A DNA stretch of 24,606 nt from positions 1 through 24,606 of IMG/VR virus record IMGVR_UViG_3300031965_000128. The stretch is one strand, 5' to 3'. Shown here one piece after another: positions 1,361 to 24,262 of the stretch. Made by a program: the position numbers and the translations under genes. The notes under the pieces are model-generated. The model ran no database searches. It was not told the DNA's origin and saw only the letters and a program-made list of their open reading frames with translations. Within the stretch, counting starts at the first letter, position 1. Each line of letters starts with the position of its first letter. This DNA is from a virus. Taxonomy: Duplodnaviria; Caudoviricetes.

Positions 1361-1579
1361 ATGTTCAGTGTCGAATACAAAGGCTATCATATTCACGGTT
1401 ATGACGACCGCCCAAATTGCATGGTCAACTTTGGCGTGTCACATCATTATAAATCTTTACTTGCAGCTAAGCTCGCCATAAGCAAGCGGATTAAGCAATT
1501 GGAAGCAAATAAGCGCAAGCGTACTGTAGCATGTGTAAACCCTTACGCAACACAGGGCAAGCTGTTTGCCCGCAGTTAA
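1361..1579 (+). CDS. Small hypothetical protein
   Basis: GGAGG RBS; its 3' third lies in the first GA/TC-free island. Confidence 0.7.
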   Translation: MFSVEYKGYHIHGYDDRPNCMVNFGVSHHYKSLLAAKLAISKRIKQLEANKRKRTVACVNPYATQGKLFARS

Positions 1580-1671
1580 ACGCTTGCGCAATACCTAAAC
1601 ACCACTTACCCTACAAACACCGCGTAGCGCGTTTAAACCGTTGCATCCAACTAACCGATTAGGAGAATAAA

Positions 1672-3433: not shown

Positions 3434-3736
3434 ATGAACCAATGGACCGCTGAATCTGCTGAAAGCTTTGCTGCGAAATTGAAAGAAAAAGCAAAGCTAG
3501 ACGCAGCCCAAGGAAAACGTGAAAGGCGTCAGCGCGAAGCGAGTTATCCAGGGTGCGCCTGCGGCAATATTGCTCGCATGGGTGAGCTCTGCTGTGGCGC
3601 TTGCATGGATAAAGCTCAGCGTCAACAAGACGAAATTGATCGTCAGAACTGTGCTTTGGAATACGTACAAGCGCTAACTCTCCAAGAACATATTGAACGT
3701 ATTGAAGCAGTCTTAATTGCGGAGGGTAAGCTATGA
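3434..3736 (+). CDS. Hypothetical protein with CxC...CCxxC metal-binding-like motif
   Basis: GGAGGAG RBS; CACG...CCGAC. Confidence 0.7.
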   Translation: MNQWTAESAESFAAKLKEKAKLDAAQGKRERRQREASYPGCACGNIARMGELCCGACMDKAQRQQDEIDRQNCALEYVQALTLQEHIERIEAVLIAEGKL

Positions 3737-4248
3737 CCCAATGGACGGCTAAGCACATCATTGCTCAGTTGAAGCAATTTAAAGATTTCTTAACCGCAAG
3801 AGGAGCAGAGGTTCATGAACCTACCAACGAATATGAATTGGTGAGATTCAGGAGCGGTAACGCAACGTCTATTGTATATACCAAGAAAAACGGTATAATA
3901 ACTTTTTTTGGTGAAGCTCATACCGCATGGATTGCCTTTAAGTCCAATGATAGTTGGAGAGCTAAGACTGTCGTGTACAAGCGTAAAACCTCATCTGTAA
4001 TAAACACCTTGCGAAAAAGGGACGGTGACAATTGCTTCTACTGTTTGCATGCAGTTTCAGGAGAGGATGAATCAGAAGAACATTTGGTGCCTATAACACA
4101 TGGAGGCCCAGACCATATCGCAAATAAAGTTCTAGCTCATAAGCTGTGCAACCAGTTAGCAGGGCATTTGAGCTTAGCGGAGAAGATTCAAATACATGTC
4201 AAGTCTCAATTAAAGAAGGTTGAACAAAATGAAAAGCAATCCGCTTGA
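3733..4248 (+). CDS. HNH endonuclease domain protein
   Basis: C-terminal RDGDNCFYC...EHLVPITHGG...N...AHKLCN. Confidence 0.85.
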   Translation: MTQWTAKHIIAQLKQFKDFLTARGAEVHEPTNEYELVRFRSGNATSIVYTKKNGIITFFGEAHTAWIAFKSNDSWRAKTVVYKRKTSSVINTLRKRDGDNCFYCLHAVSGEDESEEHLVPITHGGPDHIANKVLAHKLCNQLAGHLSLAEKIQIHVKSQLKKVEQNEKQSA

Positions 4249-4735
4249 TGTCGACGATTTACGTTTCGACACAATGGTAGCCATGAAATACCCTTCTGCC
4301 GAAGACGCTGTTATTAAGAGAGCTTTGGTGATTCTAAGCGGGCGACTTCGCGTCCCGGGTAGCTTGCTTGGGAACCCCTCAGACGTCACGCAATATTTAT
4401 CGTTGAAATTGGCAGCATTGGAGCACGAAATCTTCGGAATGCTACTCCTCGATGTCAAAAATAGACTCATTTGCGACATCCAGTTGTTCAGGGGCACTCT
4501 CACGCAAACAAGCGTATTCCCACGCGAAGTGATCAAGGAAGCCCTATCACTAAATGCCTCAAGTGTGGTTATATATCACAACCATCCAAGCGGAATGGCT
4601 GAACCTAGCCTCGTTGATAAAACTTTGACTACGGATTTGAAGAAGGCTTTGAAGTTTGTCGACATTACCATATTGGACCATATTATTATTGCCGGTATGG
4701 ATTATTACTCTTTTAGTGAGAAAGGTTTATTATGA
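4220..4735 (+). CDS. radC: RadC-like JAB/MPN domain protein
   Basis: EHEIFG, GTL, VFPREV, HNHPSG, PSxxD, ILDHIII motifs; ATG 4229 may be the real start. Confidence 0.9.
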   Translation: MNKMKSNPLDVDDLRFDTMVAMKYPSAEDAVIKRALVILSGRLRVPGSLLGNPSDVTQYLSLKLAALEHEIFGMLLLDVKNRLICDIQLFRGTLTQTSVFPREVIKEALSLNASSVVIYHNHPSGMAEPSLVDKTLTTDLKKALKFVDITILDHIIIAGMDYYSFSEKGLL

Positions 4736-6803: not shown

Positions 6804-7015
6804 ACCCGCACACCAACGCTGCTAAGCGCAGGCAAGCAGAGATAGTGTGCGACTTTCTCAACCAGCGTTTCGGCTATCGCTTGGGGTTGGAACTGTCACT
6901 TGCTGCGCTCGGCATTCAGAAAGACATGATCGACGTGATGAGCAAGCTGGCCCGCAATCGATGCATCGACGAATTCCAGGACTTGTTAAAAATTCATATG
7001 AAAGGTCAGCCATGA
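6800..7015 (+). CDS. Hypothetical protein
   Basis: GGAGG RBS, GTG start. Confidence 0.6.
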   Translation: MNPHTNAAKRRQAEIVCDFLNQRFGYRLGLELSLAALGIQKDMIDVMSKLARNRCIDEFQDLLKIHMKGQP

Positions 7016-7037
7016 ATAGGTCACAAGACGCTACGAT

Positions 7038-7283
7038 ATGCGGATCGTAACCCTAATTCCGCTAACAAAACGAGCCAAGCAGATCGTTAGGCAGCACGGT
7101 GATCGATGGGAAATCCTGCATATGTCGAATAAGGTCTTCTTCTGCAACAACGCAGGCCCGTGGATGCATGTAACGCCAATCACAGAGGAGCGAGTTCATA
7201 ACTCCGTGCGCGATACGCGAGAAGATACAGCGTCACGCTGGATACACGCACACTTCGACGATAACTTTAAAGTGATACCATGA
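7038..7283 (+). CDS. Hypothetical phage protein
   Basis: 81-aa ORF with ATGA overlap to the next gene. Confidence 0.65.
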   Translation: MRIVTLIPLTKRAKQIVRQHGDRWEILHMSNKVFFCNNAGPWMHVTPITEERVHNSVRDTREDTASRWIHAHFDDNFKVIP

Positions 7284-7918: not shown

Positions 7919-7944
7919 TTAACAGTTGAATAAAATATATTTTA

Positions 7945-7982
7945 CGCAAGCGTTGTGATTTTTAAACGCTTGCGGTTATACT
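7945..7982 (+). promoter_or_regulatory. Sigma70-like promoter overlapped by a 10-bp inverted repeat (putative operator)
   Basis: TTGTGA (7953) N18 TATACT (7977); CGCAAGCGTT-N10-AACGCTTGCG at 7945-7974. Confidence 0.55.
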
Positions 7983-8010
7983 TACCGTTTAGCAATGTTG
8001 CGCATTTATC

Positions 8011-8247
8011 ATGATGACCACACAAACGGGCGCTCAGCGGAGTTTCGACGAGAAATATATTACCGGTCCGGAGATTATGCGGGAGCTCAACCTGACGCGC
8101 CATGCTTTGCATTATGCACGCCACACCGGCAAACTACCTCACTCCATTGTCCTTAACGAAGGACGTCTTTTTATTTGGGAAAGATCTCAAATTCAACCGT
8201 ATCTCGATGCTTGGAAGATTGTTTTAGACGCTCGTCGAGGTGTCTAA
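8011..8247 (+). CDS. AlpA/excisionase-like winged-HTH DNA-binding protein
   Basis: YITGPEIMRELNLTRHAL...GKLP...FIWER pattern; directly upstream of the primase gene. Confidence 0.7.
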   Translation: MMTTQTGAQRSFDEKYITGPEIMRELNLTRHALHYARHTGKLPHSIVLNEGRLFIWERSQIQPYLDAWKIVLDARRGV

Positions 8248-8250
8248 GCG

Positions 8251-10746
8251 ATGCCGATCAATTACGAGCAGCTTCCAGAAGAGCTGAAGTGGGACCGCCA
8301 GTGGGCTCTAGCAGGTCCAGACGACCAAACCGGCAAATACCGGGCACCTTATAGTTACGGGCAAAGAGGTATCTTTAAGATCAGCCCGGTTGACAAAACG
8401 CACTGGAAAGATTTCGAAAGCATTGTTGACGCTACGCAGGTTCACAAACCTTGCGGACTTGGTTACATCCTTAGCAAAAATGACCCTTACGCATGTATCG
8501 ATCTGGATATTAAAAATGCCAATAACGAAACTGATCCCGCTAAGTGGACTTCACAAGAAAATATTGACCGATTCCATCGTATTATTGAAGCGTTTGGAAG
8601 TTACACCGAACGCAGTGCGTCCGGACAAGGGTTCCACATCTGGGTTCGTGGTGCAATTGGTGAAGGGGCTCGACGAGATGGGGTTGAAGTCTACTCACAA
8701 GAACGTTTCATTGTATGTACAGGAGACGTGTATCTCAACAAAGAGATAGAAAATCGGCAAGAACTGTTGAACCTATTGGTCCAGGAAATTAGACAAGCTT
8801 CCCCGGATACCAATAAGATTGAGCTGGTTGAAGTTGAACAAACCGAGTCCGACGAAGTCATTTTTGAACGAGCACGTACTGCGGACAATGCAGACAAATT
8901 TATAACTCTGTGTGAAGGTGACTGGACAGGTTATCCTTCGCAGTCTGAAGCAGACCTTGCGCTAATGTCTATTTTTGCGTTTTACACAAAGTCAAATGAA
9001 CAGTGCCGGCGTCTATTTCGCGCAACGAAGCTTGCTGATCGTACGCAAAACGAAAAGAACCGCCACAAGCATGATAGGAATAATTATCATCTTGACCGTA
9101 TTTTAAGCATCATCCGTGGTAGGCAACAAATAGAAGAGCAATTGGACGCGTACGGTGCGGCAAGTAGTGCGGCGCTGTTAGCTAGTATGCAGGGTAACGC
9201 ACACGTAGCAGCAACGGCAGCACCCCACAGCGCACCAGCTCACGCAGGTGGTAACCCTACCCTACCGCAGCAAGCAAACCCTGTACAAACCGCTATACTA
9301 AAAAGCAATCCCATACTATTTCCAGATGAAATTGCTGCAATGGAGCAGGGTGAGGAAGATGAAGATCGAGAACCCTCCAGTTTAGAATGGCCACCTGGCA
9401 TGATTGGGTGCCTTGCGCGACATATATTTGAAAACTCACCTCGCCCCGTTCGAGAAGTCTCGATTGTTGCTGCCCTAGGTTTGCTGGCCGGAGTGTGTGG
9501 TAAAGCATTTAACATCCCGCAGTCCGGGTTGAACCTCTACATTGTACTGGTTGCCCGTTCAGCTATCGGTAAAGAAGCTATGCATAGCGGTATCGCGAAT
9601 ATTATGAACTCTATAGGTTCCGCATCGCCTACTGTGATGTCATTTGTAGATTTTTCAGATTACGCTTCTGGTCCAGCTTTATCTAAAGCGGTTGCTGCCA
9701 ATTCTTCATTTGTCAACGTATCTGGCGAATGGGGGCGTAAATTAAAACGCCTTGGACAAGAAGATGGTAAAGAGGGCCCGATGCAGCAACTGCGCACTGT
9801 GATGACCAACTTATATCAGAAGTCTGGTTCTGGGTCAATTGTTGGCGGTATTGGTTATTCTGACAAGGATAAAAACATTGCAAGCGTTTCAGGTGCTGCA
9901 TATAGCATGATTGGTGAAAGCACCCCGAAAACTTTCTACGACTCATTGACTGAAACGATGATGGAAGACGGATTCCTGAGTCGTTTTATCGTGATTGAGT
10001 ACACAGGCAACAGACCTGCTGCAAATAGTAAATTTATCGATAAACCTGAACCTATCTTACTCAGCACCTTGACAGCGTTAATGGAGCACGCTGTTGCACT
10101 TAACGGTAGAGCTGCCGTGCAAGCGGTCACAACTACGGCAGATGCCAACGAGATATTGGTCGAATTCGATAAAGAATGTGACATACAAGTTAACGCTACT
10201 GACGACGAAGGATGGCGTCAGATGTGGAATCGTGCGCACTTGAAGACCTATCGTATTTCAGCCTTATTAGCAATAGCAGACAACCATATAAATCCTGTTA
10301 TTCGAAAGGACCACGTTGAGTGGGCATTGAACCTTATCCGTAAAGACATTCAAATTATGAGTCGCCGCATACGTTCAGGTGATGTCGGTACAGGAGACTC
10401 TACGCGGGAACGTAAGCTTCTCTCAATCCTGCATAAATATATGAGCGCGGCCGATATTGCACCAGGTTACGGTGTTCCGAAACAGATGCACGCAGATGGC
10501 ATTATTCCACGTAAGTACCTGCAGATAACCACACAGCGTTCGAGTGCTTTCACCAGTCACCGAGCTGGTCAGAACGCTATCTTGGACGCTACAATTAAGT
10601 CTCTCATTGATAGCGGTTATTTGCTTGAGTTGGGAAAGGACAAGGCGCTTAAAGATTATTCATTCCATGGAAGGGCTTTCAGGATTGTCAATTTACCACT
10701 CAATTCCAAAGAAGCTAAAGAAGTAAAAGTAGGTCTAAACAAATAA
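8251..10746 (+). CDS. Primase-polymerase (NrS-1-like) fused to a C-terminal helicase-like (DUF3987-like) domain
   Basis: CIDLD, YTERSASGQGFHIW, VEVYSQERF, SQSEADLAL motifs; later ARSAIGKE P-loop and DGFLSRF. Confidence 0.88.
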   Translation: MPINYEQLPEELKWDRQWALAGPDDQTGKYRAPYSYGQRGIFKISPVDKTHWKDFESIVDATQVHKPCGLGYILSKNDPYACIDLDIKNANNETDPAKWTSQENIDRFHRIIEAFGSYTERSASGQGFHIWVRGAIGEGARRDGVEVYSQERFIVCTGDVYLNKEIENRQELLNLLVQEIRQASPDTNKIELVEVEQTESDEVIFERARTADNADKFITLCEGDWTGYPSQSEADLALMSIFAFYTKSNEQCRRLFRATKLADRTQNEKNRHKHDRNNYHLDRILSIIRGRQQIEEQLDAYGAASSAALLASMQGNAHVAATAAPHSAPAHAGGNPTLPQQANPVQTAILKSNPILFPDEIAAMEQGEEDEDREPSSLEWPPGMIGCLARHIFENSPRPVREVSIVAALGLLAGVCGKAFNIPQSGLNLYIVLVARSAIGKEAMHSGIANIMNSIGSASPTVMSFVDFSDYASGPALSKAVAANSSFVNVSGEWGRKLKRLGQEDGKEGPMQQLRTVMTNLYQKSGSGSIVGGIGYSDKDKNIASVSGAAYSMIGESTPKTFYDSLTETMMEDGFLSRFIVIEYTGNRPAANSKFIDKPEPILLSTLTALMEHAVALNGRAAVQAVTTTADANEILVEFDKECDIQVNATDDEGWRQMWNRAHLKTYRISALLAIADNHINPVIRKDHVEWALNLIRKDIQIMSRRIRSGDVGTGDSTRERKLLSILHKYMSAADIAPGYGVPKQMHADGIIPRKYLQITTQRSSAFTSHRAGQNAILDATIKSLIDSGYLLELGKDKALKDYSFHGRAFRIVNLPLNSKEAKEVKVGLNK

Positions 10747-15642: not shown

Positions 15643-15728
15643 GCCCGGATGGCGAAACAGGTAGACGCACTGGATTTAAAATCCAACGATCTTTGATCAT
15701 GCCGGTTCGATCCCGGCTCCGGGCACCA
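15643..15728 (+). tRNA. tRNA-Leu(TAA)
   Basis: GCCCGGA/TCCGGGC acceptor stem, anticodon loop TT-TAA-AA, long variable arm, GCCGG-TTCGATC-CCGGC T arm, ACCA end. Confidence 0.93.
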
Positions 15729-15747: not shown

Positions 15748-15963
15748 ATGGCAACCAAGAAAGCAGCACCTGTCAAAAAGGCATCTCCGCCAGCAAAGAA
15801 GATTGTGCAACAAAGTCCACCAATTGATCGCTGGCAAGCACGGGACGACTTGCGTACTGTTCAAGCTGCTGCGGAGATCCAATCTGATGCAAAGCGCATG
15901 AAAGCTGCACAAGCTGAAGCGCAAAGTCAAATTGCTGCTCTGTCCAAGGTCAGCAAGAAGTAA
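15748..15963 (+). CDS. Small Lys/Ala-rich protein
   Basis: AAGGAG RBS; lies between the two tRNA genes. Confidence 0.8.
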   Translation: MATKKAAPVKKASPPAKKIVQQSPPIDRWQARDDLRTVQAAAEIQSDAKRMKAAQAEAQSQIAALSKVSKK

Positions 15964-15968
15964 TTTTC

Positions 15969-16074
15969 GCTTTCGTAGCTCAGTTGGTAGAGCATGGAAT
16001 CCTGTCATGGTAGAACAACATATCCATGGCTTGGTACGTCCAGGTCGCAGGTTCGAGTCCTGTCGGAAGCACCA
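15969..16074 (+). tRNA. tRNA-Thr(GGT)-like gene interrupted by a 31-nt insertion in the anticodon stem
   Basis: GCTTTCG/CGGAAGC acceptor, GCTC-AGTTGGTA-GAGC D arm, GCAGG-TTCGAGT-CCTGT T arm, ACCA end; deleting 15999-16029 gives TGGAC-TTGGTAC-GTCCA. Confidence 0.8.
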
Positions 16075-16099
16075 ATTTAATCAACGTAAGGAGATTATT

Positions 16100-16330
16100 G
16101 TGAAAAATGCTCAATCTGGCAAAATCATAACCGTCAAAGCAAAATCTGTCGATCTTGGCGCAATGCAAACCGAAGTTGAGCTTTCAACTAAACAAATGAA
16201 GAAAGCTACGACAGATTTACAAAAGGCGAACATTGCTTACGCGGAAGCAGAAGAACGTTACAATCAAGCGAATAAGGCTTTGATCAATGGCATCAATGTT
16301 TTGCGTTCAAGCACAAAATTGGCCGTTTAG
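16100..16330 (+). CDS. Small coiled-coil protein
   Basis: AAGGAG RBS before GTG 16100, in frame with the listed 15932 ORF. Confidence 0.75.
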   Translation: MKNAQSGKIITVKAKSVDLGAMQTEVELSTKQMKKATTDLQKANIAYAEAEERYNQANKALINGINVLRSSTKLAV

Positions 16331-20874: not shown

Positions 20875-21048
20875 ATGGACCATGACTTGTACACAGATGC
20901 AGATAAGCATCGTCCAGAGCAAATTTGCGATAGGAACGGACAAGTAGTGTTGAGTCTTTGTAAACGTTGCGGAGCAGCGGAATATGAATTACCTATCACA
21001 GAATGCTTAACAAGAAAGGTCGATGAGAATGTTCATACTTATCGATAA
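20875..21048 (+). CDS. 57-aa protein (ICDRNGQVVLSLCKRCG motif; absent from the ORF track)
   Basis: AGGAG RBS at 20864; translated by hand MDHDLYTDADKHRPEQ...HTYR*. Confidence 0.7.
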   Translation: MDHDLYTDADKHRPEQICDRNGQVVLSLCKRCGAAEYELPITECLTRKVDENVHTYR

Positions 21049-21739
21049 AGAACAAATGTGCGTCCGCTATAAGCATCATACGCAAGCATGTCTCACAAAT
21101 CTAATGCACATTGAGCTATCGCATGTTGCGGCCAGTGTCATTGCATGTGACTGGCCTGGAGCTTTTGCAGGATTCACCGACATGGAGCTGAAGCTCCTGT
21201 ACCAGAACTTGTGTGGTCAAAAATACGCAAGTTATAGCCGTGAACTATTGGTGCAGAATGTTCAAGCTTTCTGCATGTCGATTGAAGAATCAAAACTTAA
21301 CGCGCTTGAACTCTCCTTGCAAGCCGGTTACCTATCCGAAGGCAACGATAATTTTTACAAACATAGGCCCGGACACAATCAACCGCAAGCGTTAAGTGAA
21401 GTTTACACCCCTGCCGCGCTTACAGCGGTCCCGGGCTGCGTACCTATAGTAACCCCCACCCCTACAGTTAACGCAGCGCCTGCAAGCTATACGCAAACGG
21501 CAAACGCACCCATAGCGCGCACCCGCCCCGTTAGCGACGGTCCTCCGGAGCAACCTAAAGCTGGCAGCAAGACTGGACGAGTATGGGAGATTGCTGAGAT
21601 GATTTGGCAAAAATCTGGTTGCGCTTCCAACATCAAAGCTATGCGTAAGGAGATTATTGAAGCTTGCGAAGGTGAAGGTATCAATAGTAGTACAGCTTCG
21701 GTCCAATTTGGGAAATGGAAATCGACGAAAGGCGCGTGA
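21023..21739 (+). CDS. Hypothetical protein with a putative C-terminal DNA-binding domain
   Basis: C-terminal domain resembles that of the next gene; central P/A/T linker. Confidence 0.8.
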   Translation: MRMFILIDKEQMCVRYKHHTQACLTNLMHIELSHVAASVIACDWPGAFAGFTDMELKLLYQNLCGQKYASYSRELLVQNVQAFCMSIEESKLNALELSLQAGYLSEGNDNFYKHRPGHNQPQALSEVYTPAALTAVPGCVPIVTPTPTVNAAPASYTQTANAPIARTRPVSDGPPEQPKAGSKTGRVWEIAEMIWQKSGCASNIKAMRKEIIEACEGEGINSSTASVQFGKWKSTKGA

Positions 21740-21881: not shown

Positions 21882-22439
21882 ATGTCCGAAACCAAAACAC
21901 AAGAACAAATCGCTGCTGAACCTACTGCTGCAAAGACTGCGGCGGCTGCTGCCAAAGCTGAAGCAAAGGCAAAAGCTGATGCTGCAAAAGCTGAAGCAAA
22001 AGCGATCGCTGACAAAGCCAAAGCGGAGGCAAAAGAAAAAGCTGAAGCTGCAAAAGCTGAAGCAAAGAAAGCTAAAGAAGAAGCTGCTGCAAAAGTGAAA
22101 GCTGAAAAAGAAGCAAAAGCAAAACTCGATGCGGAAGCTAAAGCTGCCGCTGCTGCAACCAAAGTCAAAGTCCAGCAACCGCAGAATAACGGTGTTACCC
22201 GACCGCGTCCCGATGGTGCTTGCGGCAAGGTCTGGGCAATTGCTGATACAATCTCTGCTCGCATTGGTCAGCCGGTCCCGATCTCCATGTTGCAAAAGGA
22301 AACTTCTGCTGCCGGCCTGAACGACGCCACCTGCCGCACGCAGTACGCTCGTTGGAAAACCTTCAACGGCGTGTTCGGCGCTGTTGCCAAGCCGGCAGAA
22401 GCTGTCGCTGCTGCACCGGCAGAAGGTCAAGCAGCTTAA
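21882..22439 (+). CDS. Ala/Lys/Glu-rich protein with a putative C-terminal DNA-binding domain
   Basis: AAGGAG RBS before ATG 21882; KAEAK repeats; NGVTRPR...GKVWAIAD...TQYARWK. Confidence 0.85.
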   Translation: MSETKTQEQIAAEPTAAKTAAAAAKAEAKAKADAAKAEAKAIADKAKAEAKEKAEAAKAEAKKAKEEAAAKVKAEKEAKAKLDAEAKAAAAATKVKVQQPQNNGVTRPRPDGACGKVWAIADTISARIGQPVPISMLQKETSAAGLNDATCRTQYARWKTFNGVFGAVAKPAEAVAAAPAEGQAA

Positions 22440-22520: not shown

Positions 22521-23237
22521 ATGATTCCAATTAATACCCAACCAATTGAGAAACGTCAAGTTTCTAACGGTTCCATCCTCGACGTACATTCAGTCTTTTA
22601 CACAATTCAAGGGGAAGGTCCCTTCACCGGGCATCCTGCAGTCTTCGTCCGCCTTGCTGGTTGCAACCTTCGATGCCCCTCCTGCGACACCGATTACACA
22701 AGCGTCCGTGACCAATTGACAATCAAGGAAGTCTTGGTTGCTGTCAATATGCATTATACTGGCACGGGTCCAAATAAGCTTGTCGTCATTACCGGAGGTG
22801 AACCTTTCCGGCAAGACCTCGGTTTTCTAATCCAAGACCTCAACGGACAAGACTTCCACGTCCAAATCGAAACGAACGGGACGTTACCGGCGCCACTGCA
22901 TATCGATGACTACGATTGCACAATTGTCTGTAGCCCAAAAGCTGGCAAGATCCATCCGGAAATTGGCTACTATGCAGACGCTTTCAAATATGTGCTGAGC
23001 GCAGACAGTGTCGACCTGGAAGACGGTCTCCCGACTCTCGCTCTTAACCACACAGCATCGCCCCGCGTTGCTCGTCCGCCTGAAGAGTTTGACGGTCCAA
23101 TTTATTTGCAACCGATGGATCCGGGGCCTACCGAAACTGTCCAATACAGCAGGAACGTTCAAGCTTGCATCGAGTCTTGCATGAAGCACGGCTACATCCT
23201 TCAACTTCAGACGCATAAAATTATAGGGGTTGACTAA
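22521..23237 (+). CDS. queE: 7-carboxy-7-deazaguanine synthase (radical SAM)
   Basis: FYTIQGEG, FVRLAGCNLRCPSCDT, VVITGGEP, IETNGT, SPK, QTHK. Confidence 0.95.
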   Translation: MIPINTQPIEKRQVSNGSILDVHSVFYTIQGEGPFTGHPAVFVRLAGCNLRCPSCDTDYTSVRDQLTIKEVLVAVNMHYTGTGPNKLVVITGGEPFRQDLGFLIQDLNGQDFHVQIETNGTLPAPLHIDDYDCTIVCSPKAGKIHPEIGYYADAFKYVLSADSVDLEDGLPTLALNHTASPRVARPPEEFDGPIYLQPMDPGPTETVQYSRNVQACIESCMKHGYILQLQTHKIIGVD

Positions 23238-23446: not shown

Positions 23447-24262
23447 ATGACTAATAAACAAAAAGCGCTCGTTGTCCTATCAGGTGGGCAAGACAGCACA
23501 ACTTGTCTCGCTTGGGCGATCGCTCAAGGATACGACGTCCATACGGTAACGTTCGATTACGGTCAGAAGCACGCTGTCGAGATTGAGTCCGCTTTCATTG
23601 TGGGCAAAATGCTTGGTCTGACGCCTAGCCACATGGAGTTGGCCATCCTAGGCGAAGGTGTGCTCAAAGGTACATCGCCACTGGTCAACCGGAACGAAAC
23701 TCTGGAACAGTATGCAGACCCTCAATCTTTACCAGGCGGATTGGAGAAAACGTTTGTCCCGATGCGCAATCAATTGTTTCTCACTCTTGCTGCGAATCGT
23801 GCTTACGTGGTCGGTGCAAGCATTTTAATTACAGGTGTTTGTCAAGAAGACTTTGGCGGTTATCCAGATTGTCGTCGGGTGTTCATTGACGCTTTGCAAG
23901 ATGCGTGCAACTATGGCACTTTTACAGGTGAAGCTGGAACACTCACACCCTTGAAGATCCTTACGCCTCTCATGAATCTAACCAAATCAGAATCGGTCAA
24001 GCTTGCAATGACTCTGCCAGGTTGCATGGAAGCGCTAGCTTATAGCCACACATCTTATGACGGACAGTATCCTCCTATCGGGAAAGACCATGCGACCTTG
24101 CTCCGGGCGAAAGGTTTCGAAGAAGCTGGTGTGCCGGATCCTCTAGTCATGCGTGCAGTTAAAGACGGTCTAATGTTCCTTCCTGATACCCACAATTATG
24201 ACAGGTTTCGCTGGCCGTTCCACTTGATACAACAATCCGGCACACCGGGCCAGGAATATTAA
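23447..24262 (+). CDS. queC: 7-cyano-7-deazaguanine (preQ0) synthase
   Basis: LSGGQDS, FDYGQKH..E, TFVPMRN, GYPDCR, TPL. Confidence 0.95.
   Translation: MTNKQKALVVLSGGQDSTTCLAWAIAQGYDVHTVTFDYGQKHAVEIESAFIVGKMLGLTPSHMELAILGEGVLKGTSPLVNRNETLEQYADPQSLPGGLEKTFVPMRNQLFLTLAANRAYVVGASILITGVCQEDFGGYPDCRRVFIDALQDACNYGTFTGEAGTLTPLKILTPLMNLTKSESVKLAMTLPGCMEALAYSHTSYDGQYPPIGKDHATLLRAKGFEEAGVPDPLVMRAVKDGLMFLPDTHNYDRFRWPFHLIQQSGTPGQEY

Follow-up and report, generated by a model that had tools for sequence, protein, structure and literature searches.

The usual view of hypermodified phage DNA is that every occurrence of the motif bears the mark. In Pseudomonas phage iggy, DpdA places the deazaguanine base dPreQ0 at a strict GA motif only, with 97% of sites modified, according to the word-searched passages that give motif and saturation, and these passages do not mention GA-free regions (PMC10484667). 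In Escherichia phage CAjan, dPreQ0 is reported in the corresponding passages at both GA and GGC (PMC7544227). Here we analyse a window of 24,606 nucleotides, the entire soil-metagenome contig of the IMG/VR virus record IMGVR_UViG_3300031965_000128 (Caudoviricetes), which encodes QueE, QueC and QueD homologues and contains three short stretches, termed islands 1, 2 and 3, that are free or almost free of GA on both strands.

The window resembles iggy in gene order, which runs from primase through helicase, the protein of the open reading frame (ORF) 21023 type and an activator-like gene to QueE, QueC and QueD, after which iggy continues with FolE and DpdA. The two primases are 45% identical, and iggy has four GA/TC-free runs of 152–171 nt, but iggy is GA-poor genome-wide and the window is not. 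CAjan shares the modification pathway, the module order and GA as a target; however, it has no GA/TC-free island, and its primase, like that of Seuratvirus, is only ~40% identical to that of the window (49% for NP1-type phages). A related form of word avoidance is reported for the Autographiviridae, whose early-injected region lacks Type I sites (PMC12455610). There, as here, a short word is locally absent from both strands, its absence being maintained by selection against a DNA-reading enzyme, but the word in the Autographiviridae is the target of a host enzyme and its absence protects from cleavage, whereas the word avoided in the window, in short dispersed patches, would be the one that the phage itself modifies for protection. 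We found no published description of such islands in the literature, the word-searched passages of PMC7544227 and PMC10484667 included.

GA/TC-free islands in the window

The window contains 2970 GA and TC dinucleotides in 24,605 steps (0.1207 per step), giving an expectation of ~17 per 144 nt. An earlier note on this DNA, made from the letters alone, had reported that positions 1503–1646 hold neither GA nor TC over 144 nt and span the end of ORF 1361–1579 and the following gap; both statements are correct, the island consisting of the last 25 codons of the ORF and 67 nt of the gap. The two similar islands that it had named, at 9146–9309 and 21399–21536, likewise lie beyond chance, but each holds one TC. 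The longest free runs are 144 nt (1503–1646), 107 nt (21430–21536), 95 nt (9146–9240) and 69 nt (9241–9309); the 107-nt run is preceded by another 31 free nt (21399–21429) with a single TC between, and the next longest run in the window measures 52 nt. In 500 dinucleotide-preserving shuffles, the longest run had a mean of 57 nt (standard deviation 8, maximum 101), and the third-longest never exceeded 68 nt. The shuffled control that the note had proposed was also applied to whole regions: three regions of the window contain no more than one GA/TC per 130 nt, and none of 300 shuffles produced any. These results show that the islands are far beyond chance.

The depletion is confined to a single dinucleotide and its complement. 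GA occurs 0, 0 and 0 times in islands 1, 2 and 3, compared with 8.8, 12.0 and 7.0 expected from local composition, and TC 0, 1 and 1 times, compared with 8.5, 7.3 and 8.4. Other dinucleotides are near expectation, with GC, GT and TA making up the difference, and none of the other nine dinucleotide classes gives a run in the window with a geometric expectation (E) below 0.01. GGC/GCC is present in the islands (2, 3 and 5 copies), as had been remarked before, and the GA/TC-specific depletion agrees with the proposal that GA alone is avoided and with the strict GA motif given in the iggy passages (PMC10484667). The run lengths had suggested depletion in one further region, 7958–8366, where the counts nevertheless prove normal (GA 28 vs 26, TC 21 vs 25).

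Because acid-free linkers necessarily avoid GAN codons, peptides were held fixed in the recoding analysis and synonymous codons were redrawn from the usage of the window. In 300 recodings of the whole window, the longest free run averaged 58 nt and reached at most 100 nt. The coding part of island 1 (1505–1576) has no GA/TC compared with 5.4 expected by synonymous recoding (P = 0.001), and its non-coding part (1580–1646) has none compared with 7.7 expected from its own composition. Island 2 holds 1 GA/TC vs 12.0 expected and island 3 holds 1 vs 11.0; for either island, 0 of 5000 recodings were as low, and the lowest still held 3. Islands 2 and 3 use AGY for each of their seven Ser codons and the rare ATA for each of their three Ile codons. 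Island 3 encodes a linker modelled by AlphaFold as disordered, with a predicted local distance difference test score (pLDDT) <50 at residues 150–171. Islands 2 and 3 are not an artefact of low-complexity-linker composition, and the avoidance acts on DNA, independently of the encoded amino acids.

The avoidance is also restricted in place. Across codon junctions of the window genes, the observed-to-expected ratio (O/E) is 1.01 for GA and 0.92 for TC; therefore, the avoidance is local and there is no general mutational drain. Of seven segments of at least 35 residues that lack Asp and Glu, the five other than the islands are at GA/TC expectation. The intergenic gaps together hold 121 GA/TC in 1268 nt and are mostly normal, only those at 1580, 7919 and 20808 being clearly low; the gap at 7919–8010 has 3 GA/TC vs 9.9 expected. 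The islands very probably reflect selection against GA that is local, acts at the codon level and on both strands alike, and is limited to a few short stretches.

Recurrence in relatives and association with que/dpdA genes

Whole-window megablast against the phage collection gave no match, and the nearer relatives are all uncultured IMG/VR contigs (L014, L015, L044, L016, L017 and L018), with helicase identities of 74–63%. The ORF 21023-type linker is GA/TC-free in 7/7 of the closest loci, over 126–168 nt in these six contigs, and the free stretch starts at the same codon although the peptides have widely diverged. Over 28 orthologous linkers, 73 GA/TC are observed compared with 240 expected (O/E 0.30), the other nine dinucleotide classes ranging from 0.75 to 1.49; the N-terminal domains of the same 28 genes are at GA/TC expectation. 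The primase linker is free in three loci, namely the window, L044 and L017 (154 nt in each of the latter two). These results show that the islands are conserved in position while their sequence diverges.

Non-coding islands recur as well. Directly upstream of dpdA, six relatives carry a GA/TC-free non-coding stretch of 79–138 nt. It contains a conserved hairpin with TTTTAA after it, as well as another inverted repeat around TTGCCG...GCAAGCGGCAA, and is a candidate element for the control of dpdA itself. Five islands with E < 0.01 are present in the 71-kb relative G001, located in the two linkers, the dpdA leader, a 149-nt non-coding stretch where the gene arms meet, and a small ORF. Of the four free runs in iggy (27694–27854, 39300–39456, 42700–42870 and 60074–60225), two lie in linkers, one in a small gene where the gene arms turn and one in a divergent intergenic region; NP1 has two free runs. 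The GA poverty of iggy amounts to 0.097 GA+TC per step, compared with 0.13 in NP1 and Bhz54, and 10 of its 51 Asp/Glu-free segments are GA/TC-depleted by naive ORF calls, so that avoidance is broader there than in the window. The GA/TC-poor spacers that precede the primase in L002 and L003 are ordinary AT-rich intergenic DNA and were not counted as islands.

Two helicase-profile scans yielded 141 loci, 107 after removal of overlaps, and loci were scored as lacking que genes where none of these genes separates the helicase from the polymerase genes that come after it, the status being read from ~20 kb of locus. At E < 0.01, 36 GA/TC-free runs lie in 26 of the 56 que/dpdA-bearing loci (824 kb), and 4 lie in 4 of the 26 loci without que genes (384 kb). 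Half of the former (18/36) fall in the linkers of proteins of the single-stranded DNA-binding protein (SSB) type. Such Q/P-rich linkers are free in phages without que genes too, and therefore composition alone can yield these runs in extreme cases. The Q/P/A-rich C-terminal linkers of SSB-like DUF669 proteins are GA/TC-free over 100–200 nt with or without que genes (for example NP1 39698–39841, L025 8071–8265 and L121 5821–5934); the SSB-linker runs are a composition effect, to be set aside in island surveys.

When they are set aside, 18 islands are found in 16 of 56 que/dpdA-bearing loci (15 of 45 helicase clusters at 85% identity) and none in the 26 loci (21 clusters) without que genes (Fisher p = 0.0018 for loci and 0.0015 for clusters). 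No island is present in Loki and Halfdan, two complete Lokivirus genomes with the same replication module and no que/dpdA genes. Non-SSB islands are confined to que/dpdA-bearing loci among those compared. The comparison of relatives with and without these genes, which the earlier note had asked for, comes out in favour of an association with the pathway for the non-SSB islands, but not for SSB-linker runs, four of which occur in loci without que genes.

In a quick tree, the DpdA proteins of the window's closest relatives group beside those of iggy and CAjan (Shimodaira–Hasegawa-like approximate likelihood ratio test value 97). All 16 island-bearing entries belong to the large DpdA clade with iggy, CAjan and NP1, and the eight Bhz54-type entries have none. 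The island label is modestly clustered on this tree, with 9 changes vs 12.8 in shuffles (7–9 of 500 shuffles were as low), and islands number 13 in 175 kb for the clade with iggy and CAjan vs 0 in 151 kb for the Bhz54 type. GC-free and CG-free runs in Bhz54-type loci had been considered as traces of another motif, but they are AT-rich repeat spacers full of GA/TC and are uninformative on the motif. A 250-nt GC-free AT-rich spacer with two long direct repeats downstream of the primase gene in the Bhz54 locus L006 (38264–38513) is unrelated to GA avoidance and may be an origin or regulatory region.

Possible role of the islands and alternative explanations

We propose that selection keeps these stretches GA-free on both strands and that they are likely left unmodified under a predicted GA-acting DpdA, a reading to which we assign a probability of about 0.55. 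The phage's DpdA is predicted to replace guanines at GA elsewhere in the genome, as in iggy and CAjan, and an enzyme that targets GA would leave the islands as canonical DNA. By analogy with these phages, the islands are probably tied to the GA target of DpdA. As to their purpose, the most likely reading, which we put forward tentatively, is that they keep cis-acting DNA readable. The islands would comprise control regions together with sites lodged in the disordered linkers of two replication-module proteins, two islands residing in linkers because only there could coding DNA bear such a constraint. Proteins would have to read this DNA alike on the injected, modified genome and on fresh, unmodified copies.

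Two familiar arrangements offer partial parallels. Vertebrate CpG islands are unmethylated patches in control regions that abound in the target dinucleotide and that bound proteins keep unmodified; they resemble the phage islands as short patches free of the genome's prevailing base modification but differ in that the phage islands simply lack the target. The origin of phage lambda lies within gene O, in the DNA for its linker, and offers a precedent for islands 2 and 3 as possible cis-acting sites inside the interdomain linkers of replication genes. Iterons, an AT-rich tract and an initiator function would be putative for islands 2 and 3, and the ORF 21023 protein gave no significant fold match.

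Several observations weigh against the proposed role. The dpdA gene is absent from the 24.6-kb contig, and its presence is deduced from the synteny of relatives. GA/TC-free runs also occur in loci without que genes, all four of them in extreme Q/P/A/G/N-rich SSB-type linkers. These loci all belong to one other lineage (Lokivirus-like), and therefore the association is confounded with phylogeny; their lack of que genes is judged from a 20-kb locus except in Loki and Halfdan. CAjan has no island (longest free run 81 nt, E 0.6), also when GGC/GCC is added to the avoided set (79 nt, E 0.2), nor does Vid5 in the 49.4 of 61.4 kb examined, nor Bhz54, nor any of eight loci with a Bhz54-type DpdA. In addition, ordinary ORF 21023-type linkers occur in the dpdA-bearing loci L030, L034, L049, L054, L038, L039, L074 and L093. 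The islands are therefore a lineage trait and not a general rule of deazaguanine phages, and the islands reported in the earlier note are real, recurrent and maintained at the DNA level, and in their non-SSB form occur only in que/dpdA loci, but do not extend to CAjan, the examined part of Vid5 or the Bhz54 type. Further counter-evidence concerns individual islands. Island 1 has no orthologue in any compared locus, a consensus scan found no promoter or terminator within 1503–1646, and Rfam gives nothing in island 1, its only matches in the window being two tRNAs away from the islands. The pattern CTTGC-N18-20-TANNNT, on which a candidate promoter in island 1 can be drawn, is not enriched in the window (4 matches vs 3.2 expected), and exact GCAAGCG, a word discussed below, is absent from islands 2 and 3.

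The first alternative is that the islands are dense arrays of cis-acting elements (operators, promoters, an origin) that happen to exclude GA, modification playing no part. A repeated word lends it some support. GCAAGCG/CGCTTGC occurs 16 times in the window vs 3.0 expected and forms inverted pairs in island 1 and at 7945–7974. The 9-mer CGCAAGCGT has seven exact copies (the pair at 7945–7974, and 1514, 1580, 14565, 20314 and 21384) and 17 matches with one mismatch allowed, a number never reached in 100 shuffles. The pair at 7945–7974 looks like a putative operator of a phage regulator and overlaps a predicted promoter, TTGTGA-18-TATACT (7953–7982), upstream of a conserved small ORF (8011) and the primase. 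GCAAGCG is also the top 7-mer in 12 coding island segments from the window and its six closest relatives (1509 nt), with 13 copies vs 2.2 in recodings constrained to be GA/TC-free (z 7.1); islands 2 and 3 lack the exact word, and therefore this enrichment comes mainly from the relatives. In G001, islands make up 1.2% of the genome and contain 8 of the 37 copies. These counts speak for the proposed reading as well, hinting that GCAAGCG is a candidate binding site for an island-reading protein, and the relatives' non-coding islands likewise carry conserved hairpins and shared words. However, the words cover a small part of an island and yet the whole 100–170 nt is free, the linkers diverge freely among relatives yet stay GA/TC-free, and Dpd-less relatives with the same replication module lack such islands. 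An explanation by such arrays alone is unlikely. The word ACCCTAC was also considered as an island word, with 3/3 copies in islands 1 and 2, but two copies overlap and 8 of 100 shuffles reach three.

A second possibility is a different reader of GA, either a nuclease that cuts unmodified GA sites or a defence that senses modified GA. The strand symmetry of the avoidance is what a reader of double-stranded DNA would produce, the que/dpdA association would suit any partner of that system, and among the proteins of the window are an HNH endonuclease and a homologue of endonuclease VII. However, no such nuclease was identified in this analysis, a target of only two bases would be extreme for such an enzyme, and the particular places involved, linkers and control regions, would be left without a reason. 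We know of no GA-cutting nuclease of that kind, and we hold this explanation to be slightly less probable than the preceding one.

The islands might, thirdly, be by-products of low-complexity linkers, in which Ala/Pro/Thr/Gln-rich, acid-free codons and slippage-built DNA lack GA/TC. Islands 2 and 3 do encode disordered linkers without Asp or Glu, the SSB linkers show that Q/P/A-rich sequence can be GA/TC-free without que genes, and other dinucleotide classes occasionally give long free runs in low-complexity genes. This explanation fails on the recodings with fixed peptides described above, on the restriction of depletion to GA/TC over the 28 linkers, on the normal counts in the five other acid-free segments, and on the half of island 1 and the relatives' dpdA-upstream and arm-meeting islands that are non-coding; for this window it is largely refuted and quite improbable. 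Mutational decay, in which base exchange at GA would be mutagenic and GA would erode under weak selection in linkers and spacers, fits the location of the islands in the least constrained DNA and the overall GA poverty and broader depletion of iggy, but it is contradicted by the codon-junction ratios, the mostly normal gaps and the ordinary acid-free segments of the window and is very improbable.

If selection does keep the islands free of the mark, modification would carry a cost for DNA-reading proteins, and the genome would be shaped to avoid that cost; the word missing from islands would predict the target motif of uncharacterised DpdA enzymes, and the islands would indicate where origins, operators and promoters lie in phages that lack maps of them. 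A broader and more doubtful generalization is that the genomes of these phages carry a negative of the phages' own epigenetic mark, a few cis-acting sites being spelled without the DpdA target and staying canonical both on the injected, modified chromosome and on new copies; these sites would be control regions, the turn of the gene arms, the dpdA leader and the probable origins in replication-gene linkers. Were this true, the specificity of an uncharacterised DpdA and a map of the phage's cis-elements could be read from sequence alone.

Gene content and other features of the window

Among public sequencing runs the window was found in one, which is stored as contigs and is probably its source. 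Every gene of the window is oriented rightward, with an early region of small ORFs followed by the replication module and the que genes (Table 1). The module runs from a small ORF of DNA-binding type (8011) through primase, MazG-like, ligase, Sak4, DUF669 SSB-like, Cas4-type exonuclease, endonuclease VII and helicase genes to phrog_7864, phrog_18634, QueE, QueC and the start of QueD, and shows Queuovirinae-like synteny, as judged from the annotations of iggy, NP1, CAjan and Vid5. The three que genes recognised in the earlier note are present and provide the preQ0-synthesis part of a Queuovirinae-type deazaguanine module. FolE and DpdA have no match in the window, whose contig stops within QueD; both come after QueD in iggy, NP1, CAjan, Vid5 and Bhz54, and in those of the closest IMG/VR loci that are long enough.

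Table 1 Positions of islands, genes and sequence elements (window coordinates unless a locus is named)
Feature	Position	Strand	Remarks
Island 1	1503–1646		144 nt, zero GA and zero TC (neither strand has GA)
Island 2	9146–9309		164 nt, single TC (9240–9241); encodes Ala/Pro/Gln-rich primase linker
Island 3	21399–21536		138 nt, single TC (21429–21430); encodes linker of ORF 21023–21739 protein
Small ORF, 72 aa	1361–1579	+	GGGGAGG Shine-Dalgarno-like upstream; last 25 codons in island 1
Inverted pair GCGCAAGCGT (1513–1522) / ACGCTTGCGC (1580–1589)	1513–1589		10 bp, within island 1; each arm has GCAAGCG
Candidate promoter TTGCGC-17-TACCCT	1583–1611	+	weak, read by eye; analogy to L001 6966–7066
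First ORF downstream of island 1, 72 aa	1672–1890	+	
Operator-like inverted pair, CGCAAGCGT (7945–7953) and complement (7966–7974)	7945–7974		overlaps predicted promoter
Primase / primase-helicase gene	8251–10746	+	phrog_3022; DUF3987; NrS-1 polymerase HBD
Two-domain protein, between helicase and que genes	21023–21739	+	phrog_7864
Activator-like gene	21882–22439		phrog_18634
QueE	22521–23237	+	Pfam Radical_SAM 7e-8; phrog_2076 QueE-like 9e-58
QueC	23447–24262	+	PF06508 1.7e-51
QueD	24262–end (24606)	+	cut by contig end; PTPS PF01242 1.5e-15; phrog_2389
dpdA-upstream free element	L014 14213–14329		
dpdA-upstream free element	L018 11800–11930		
dpdA-upstream free element	L044 17906–18043		
dpdA-upstream free element	L046 14917–15045		
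dpdA-upstream free element	L017 15317–15424		
dpdA-upstream free element	L016 16831–16909		

ORF 1361–1579 has no family match and no homologue in any compared locus, a metagenome scan with the ORF 1672 protein matched only the window's own contig, and tblastn of the ORFs around the island against all compared loci found nothing except ORF 2266 in L001. The nearest analogue of the island lies in that locus, as a 101-nt free spacer (6966–7066) just upstream of the ORF 2266 homologue, which shares the words TTTAA(A/G)CGCTTGC and ACCCTAC with island 1 and has a good promoter-like site, TTGCAC-16-TAAAAT. The candidate promoter of island 1 is the sole CTTGC-N18-20-TANNNT match inside an island. The inverted pair closes a branched fold as RNA, the fold of 1495–1675 having an energy of −49.5 kcal/mol (z −2.64).

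For the ORF 21023 protein, a related-locus search with this protein alone in viral contigs returned none, and Pfam gave nothing on 25 orthologues. The AlphaFold model has a pLDDT of 87.9; Foldseek found nothing in the PDB below E = 2, and the best match of a wide VIA-align comparison (Z 5.9) involved the protein's C-terminal three-helix bundle. The domains matched there were small helical and winged-helix ones, at a score below the meaningful level.

The activator-like gene probably starts at ATG 21882, which follows AAGGAG, and not at TTG 21789. Its Ala/Lys/Glu-rich repeat region (21924–22133) lacks AC/GT, TA, AT, CG and CC/GG over 100–160 nt each. AC/GT-free runs with E < 0.01 number 13 in que-bearing loci and 0 in loci without que genes, and are unexplained beyond low complexity. 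In the early region, the HNH endonuclease ORF (3733–4248) overlaps the start of a RadC-like JAB-domain ORF (4220–4735; PF04002, 2.5e-41) by 29 nt. A tRNA-Leu(TAA) at 15643–15728 is called by ARAGORN and Rfam alike, and a second Rfam tRNA match at 15969–16071 (103 nt, 48.8 bits), which has no ARAGORN call and overlaps the mechanical ORF 15932–16330, may represent either a degenerate copy or a tRNA that carries a long insert.

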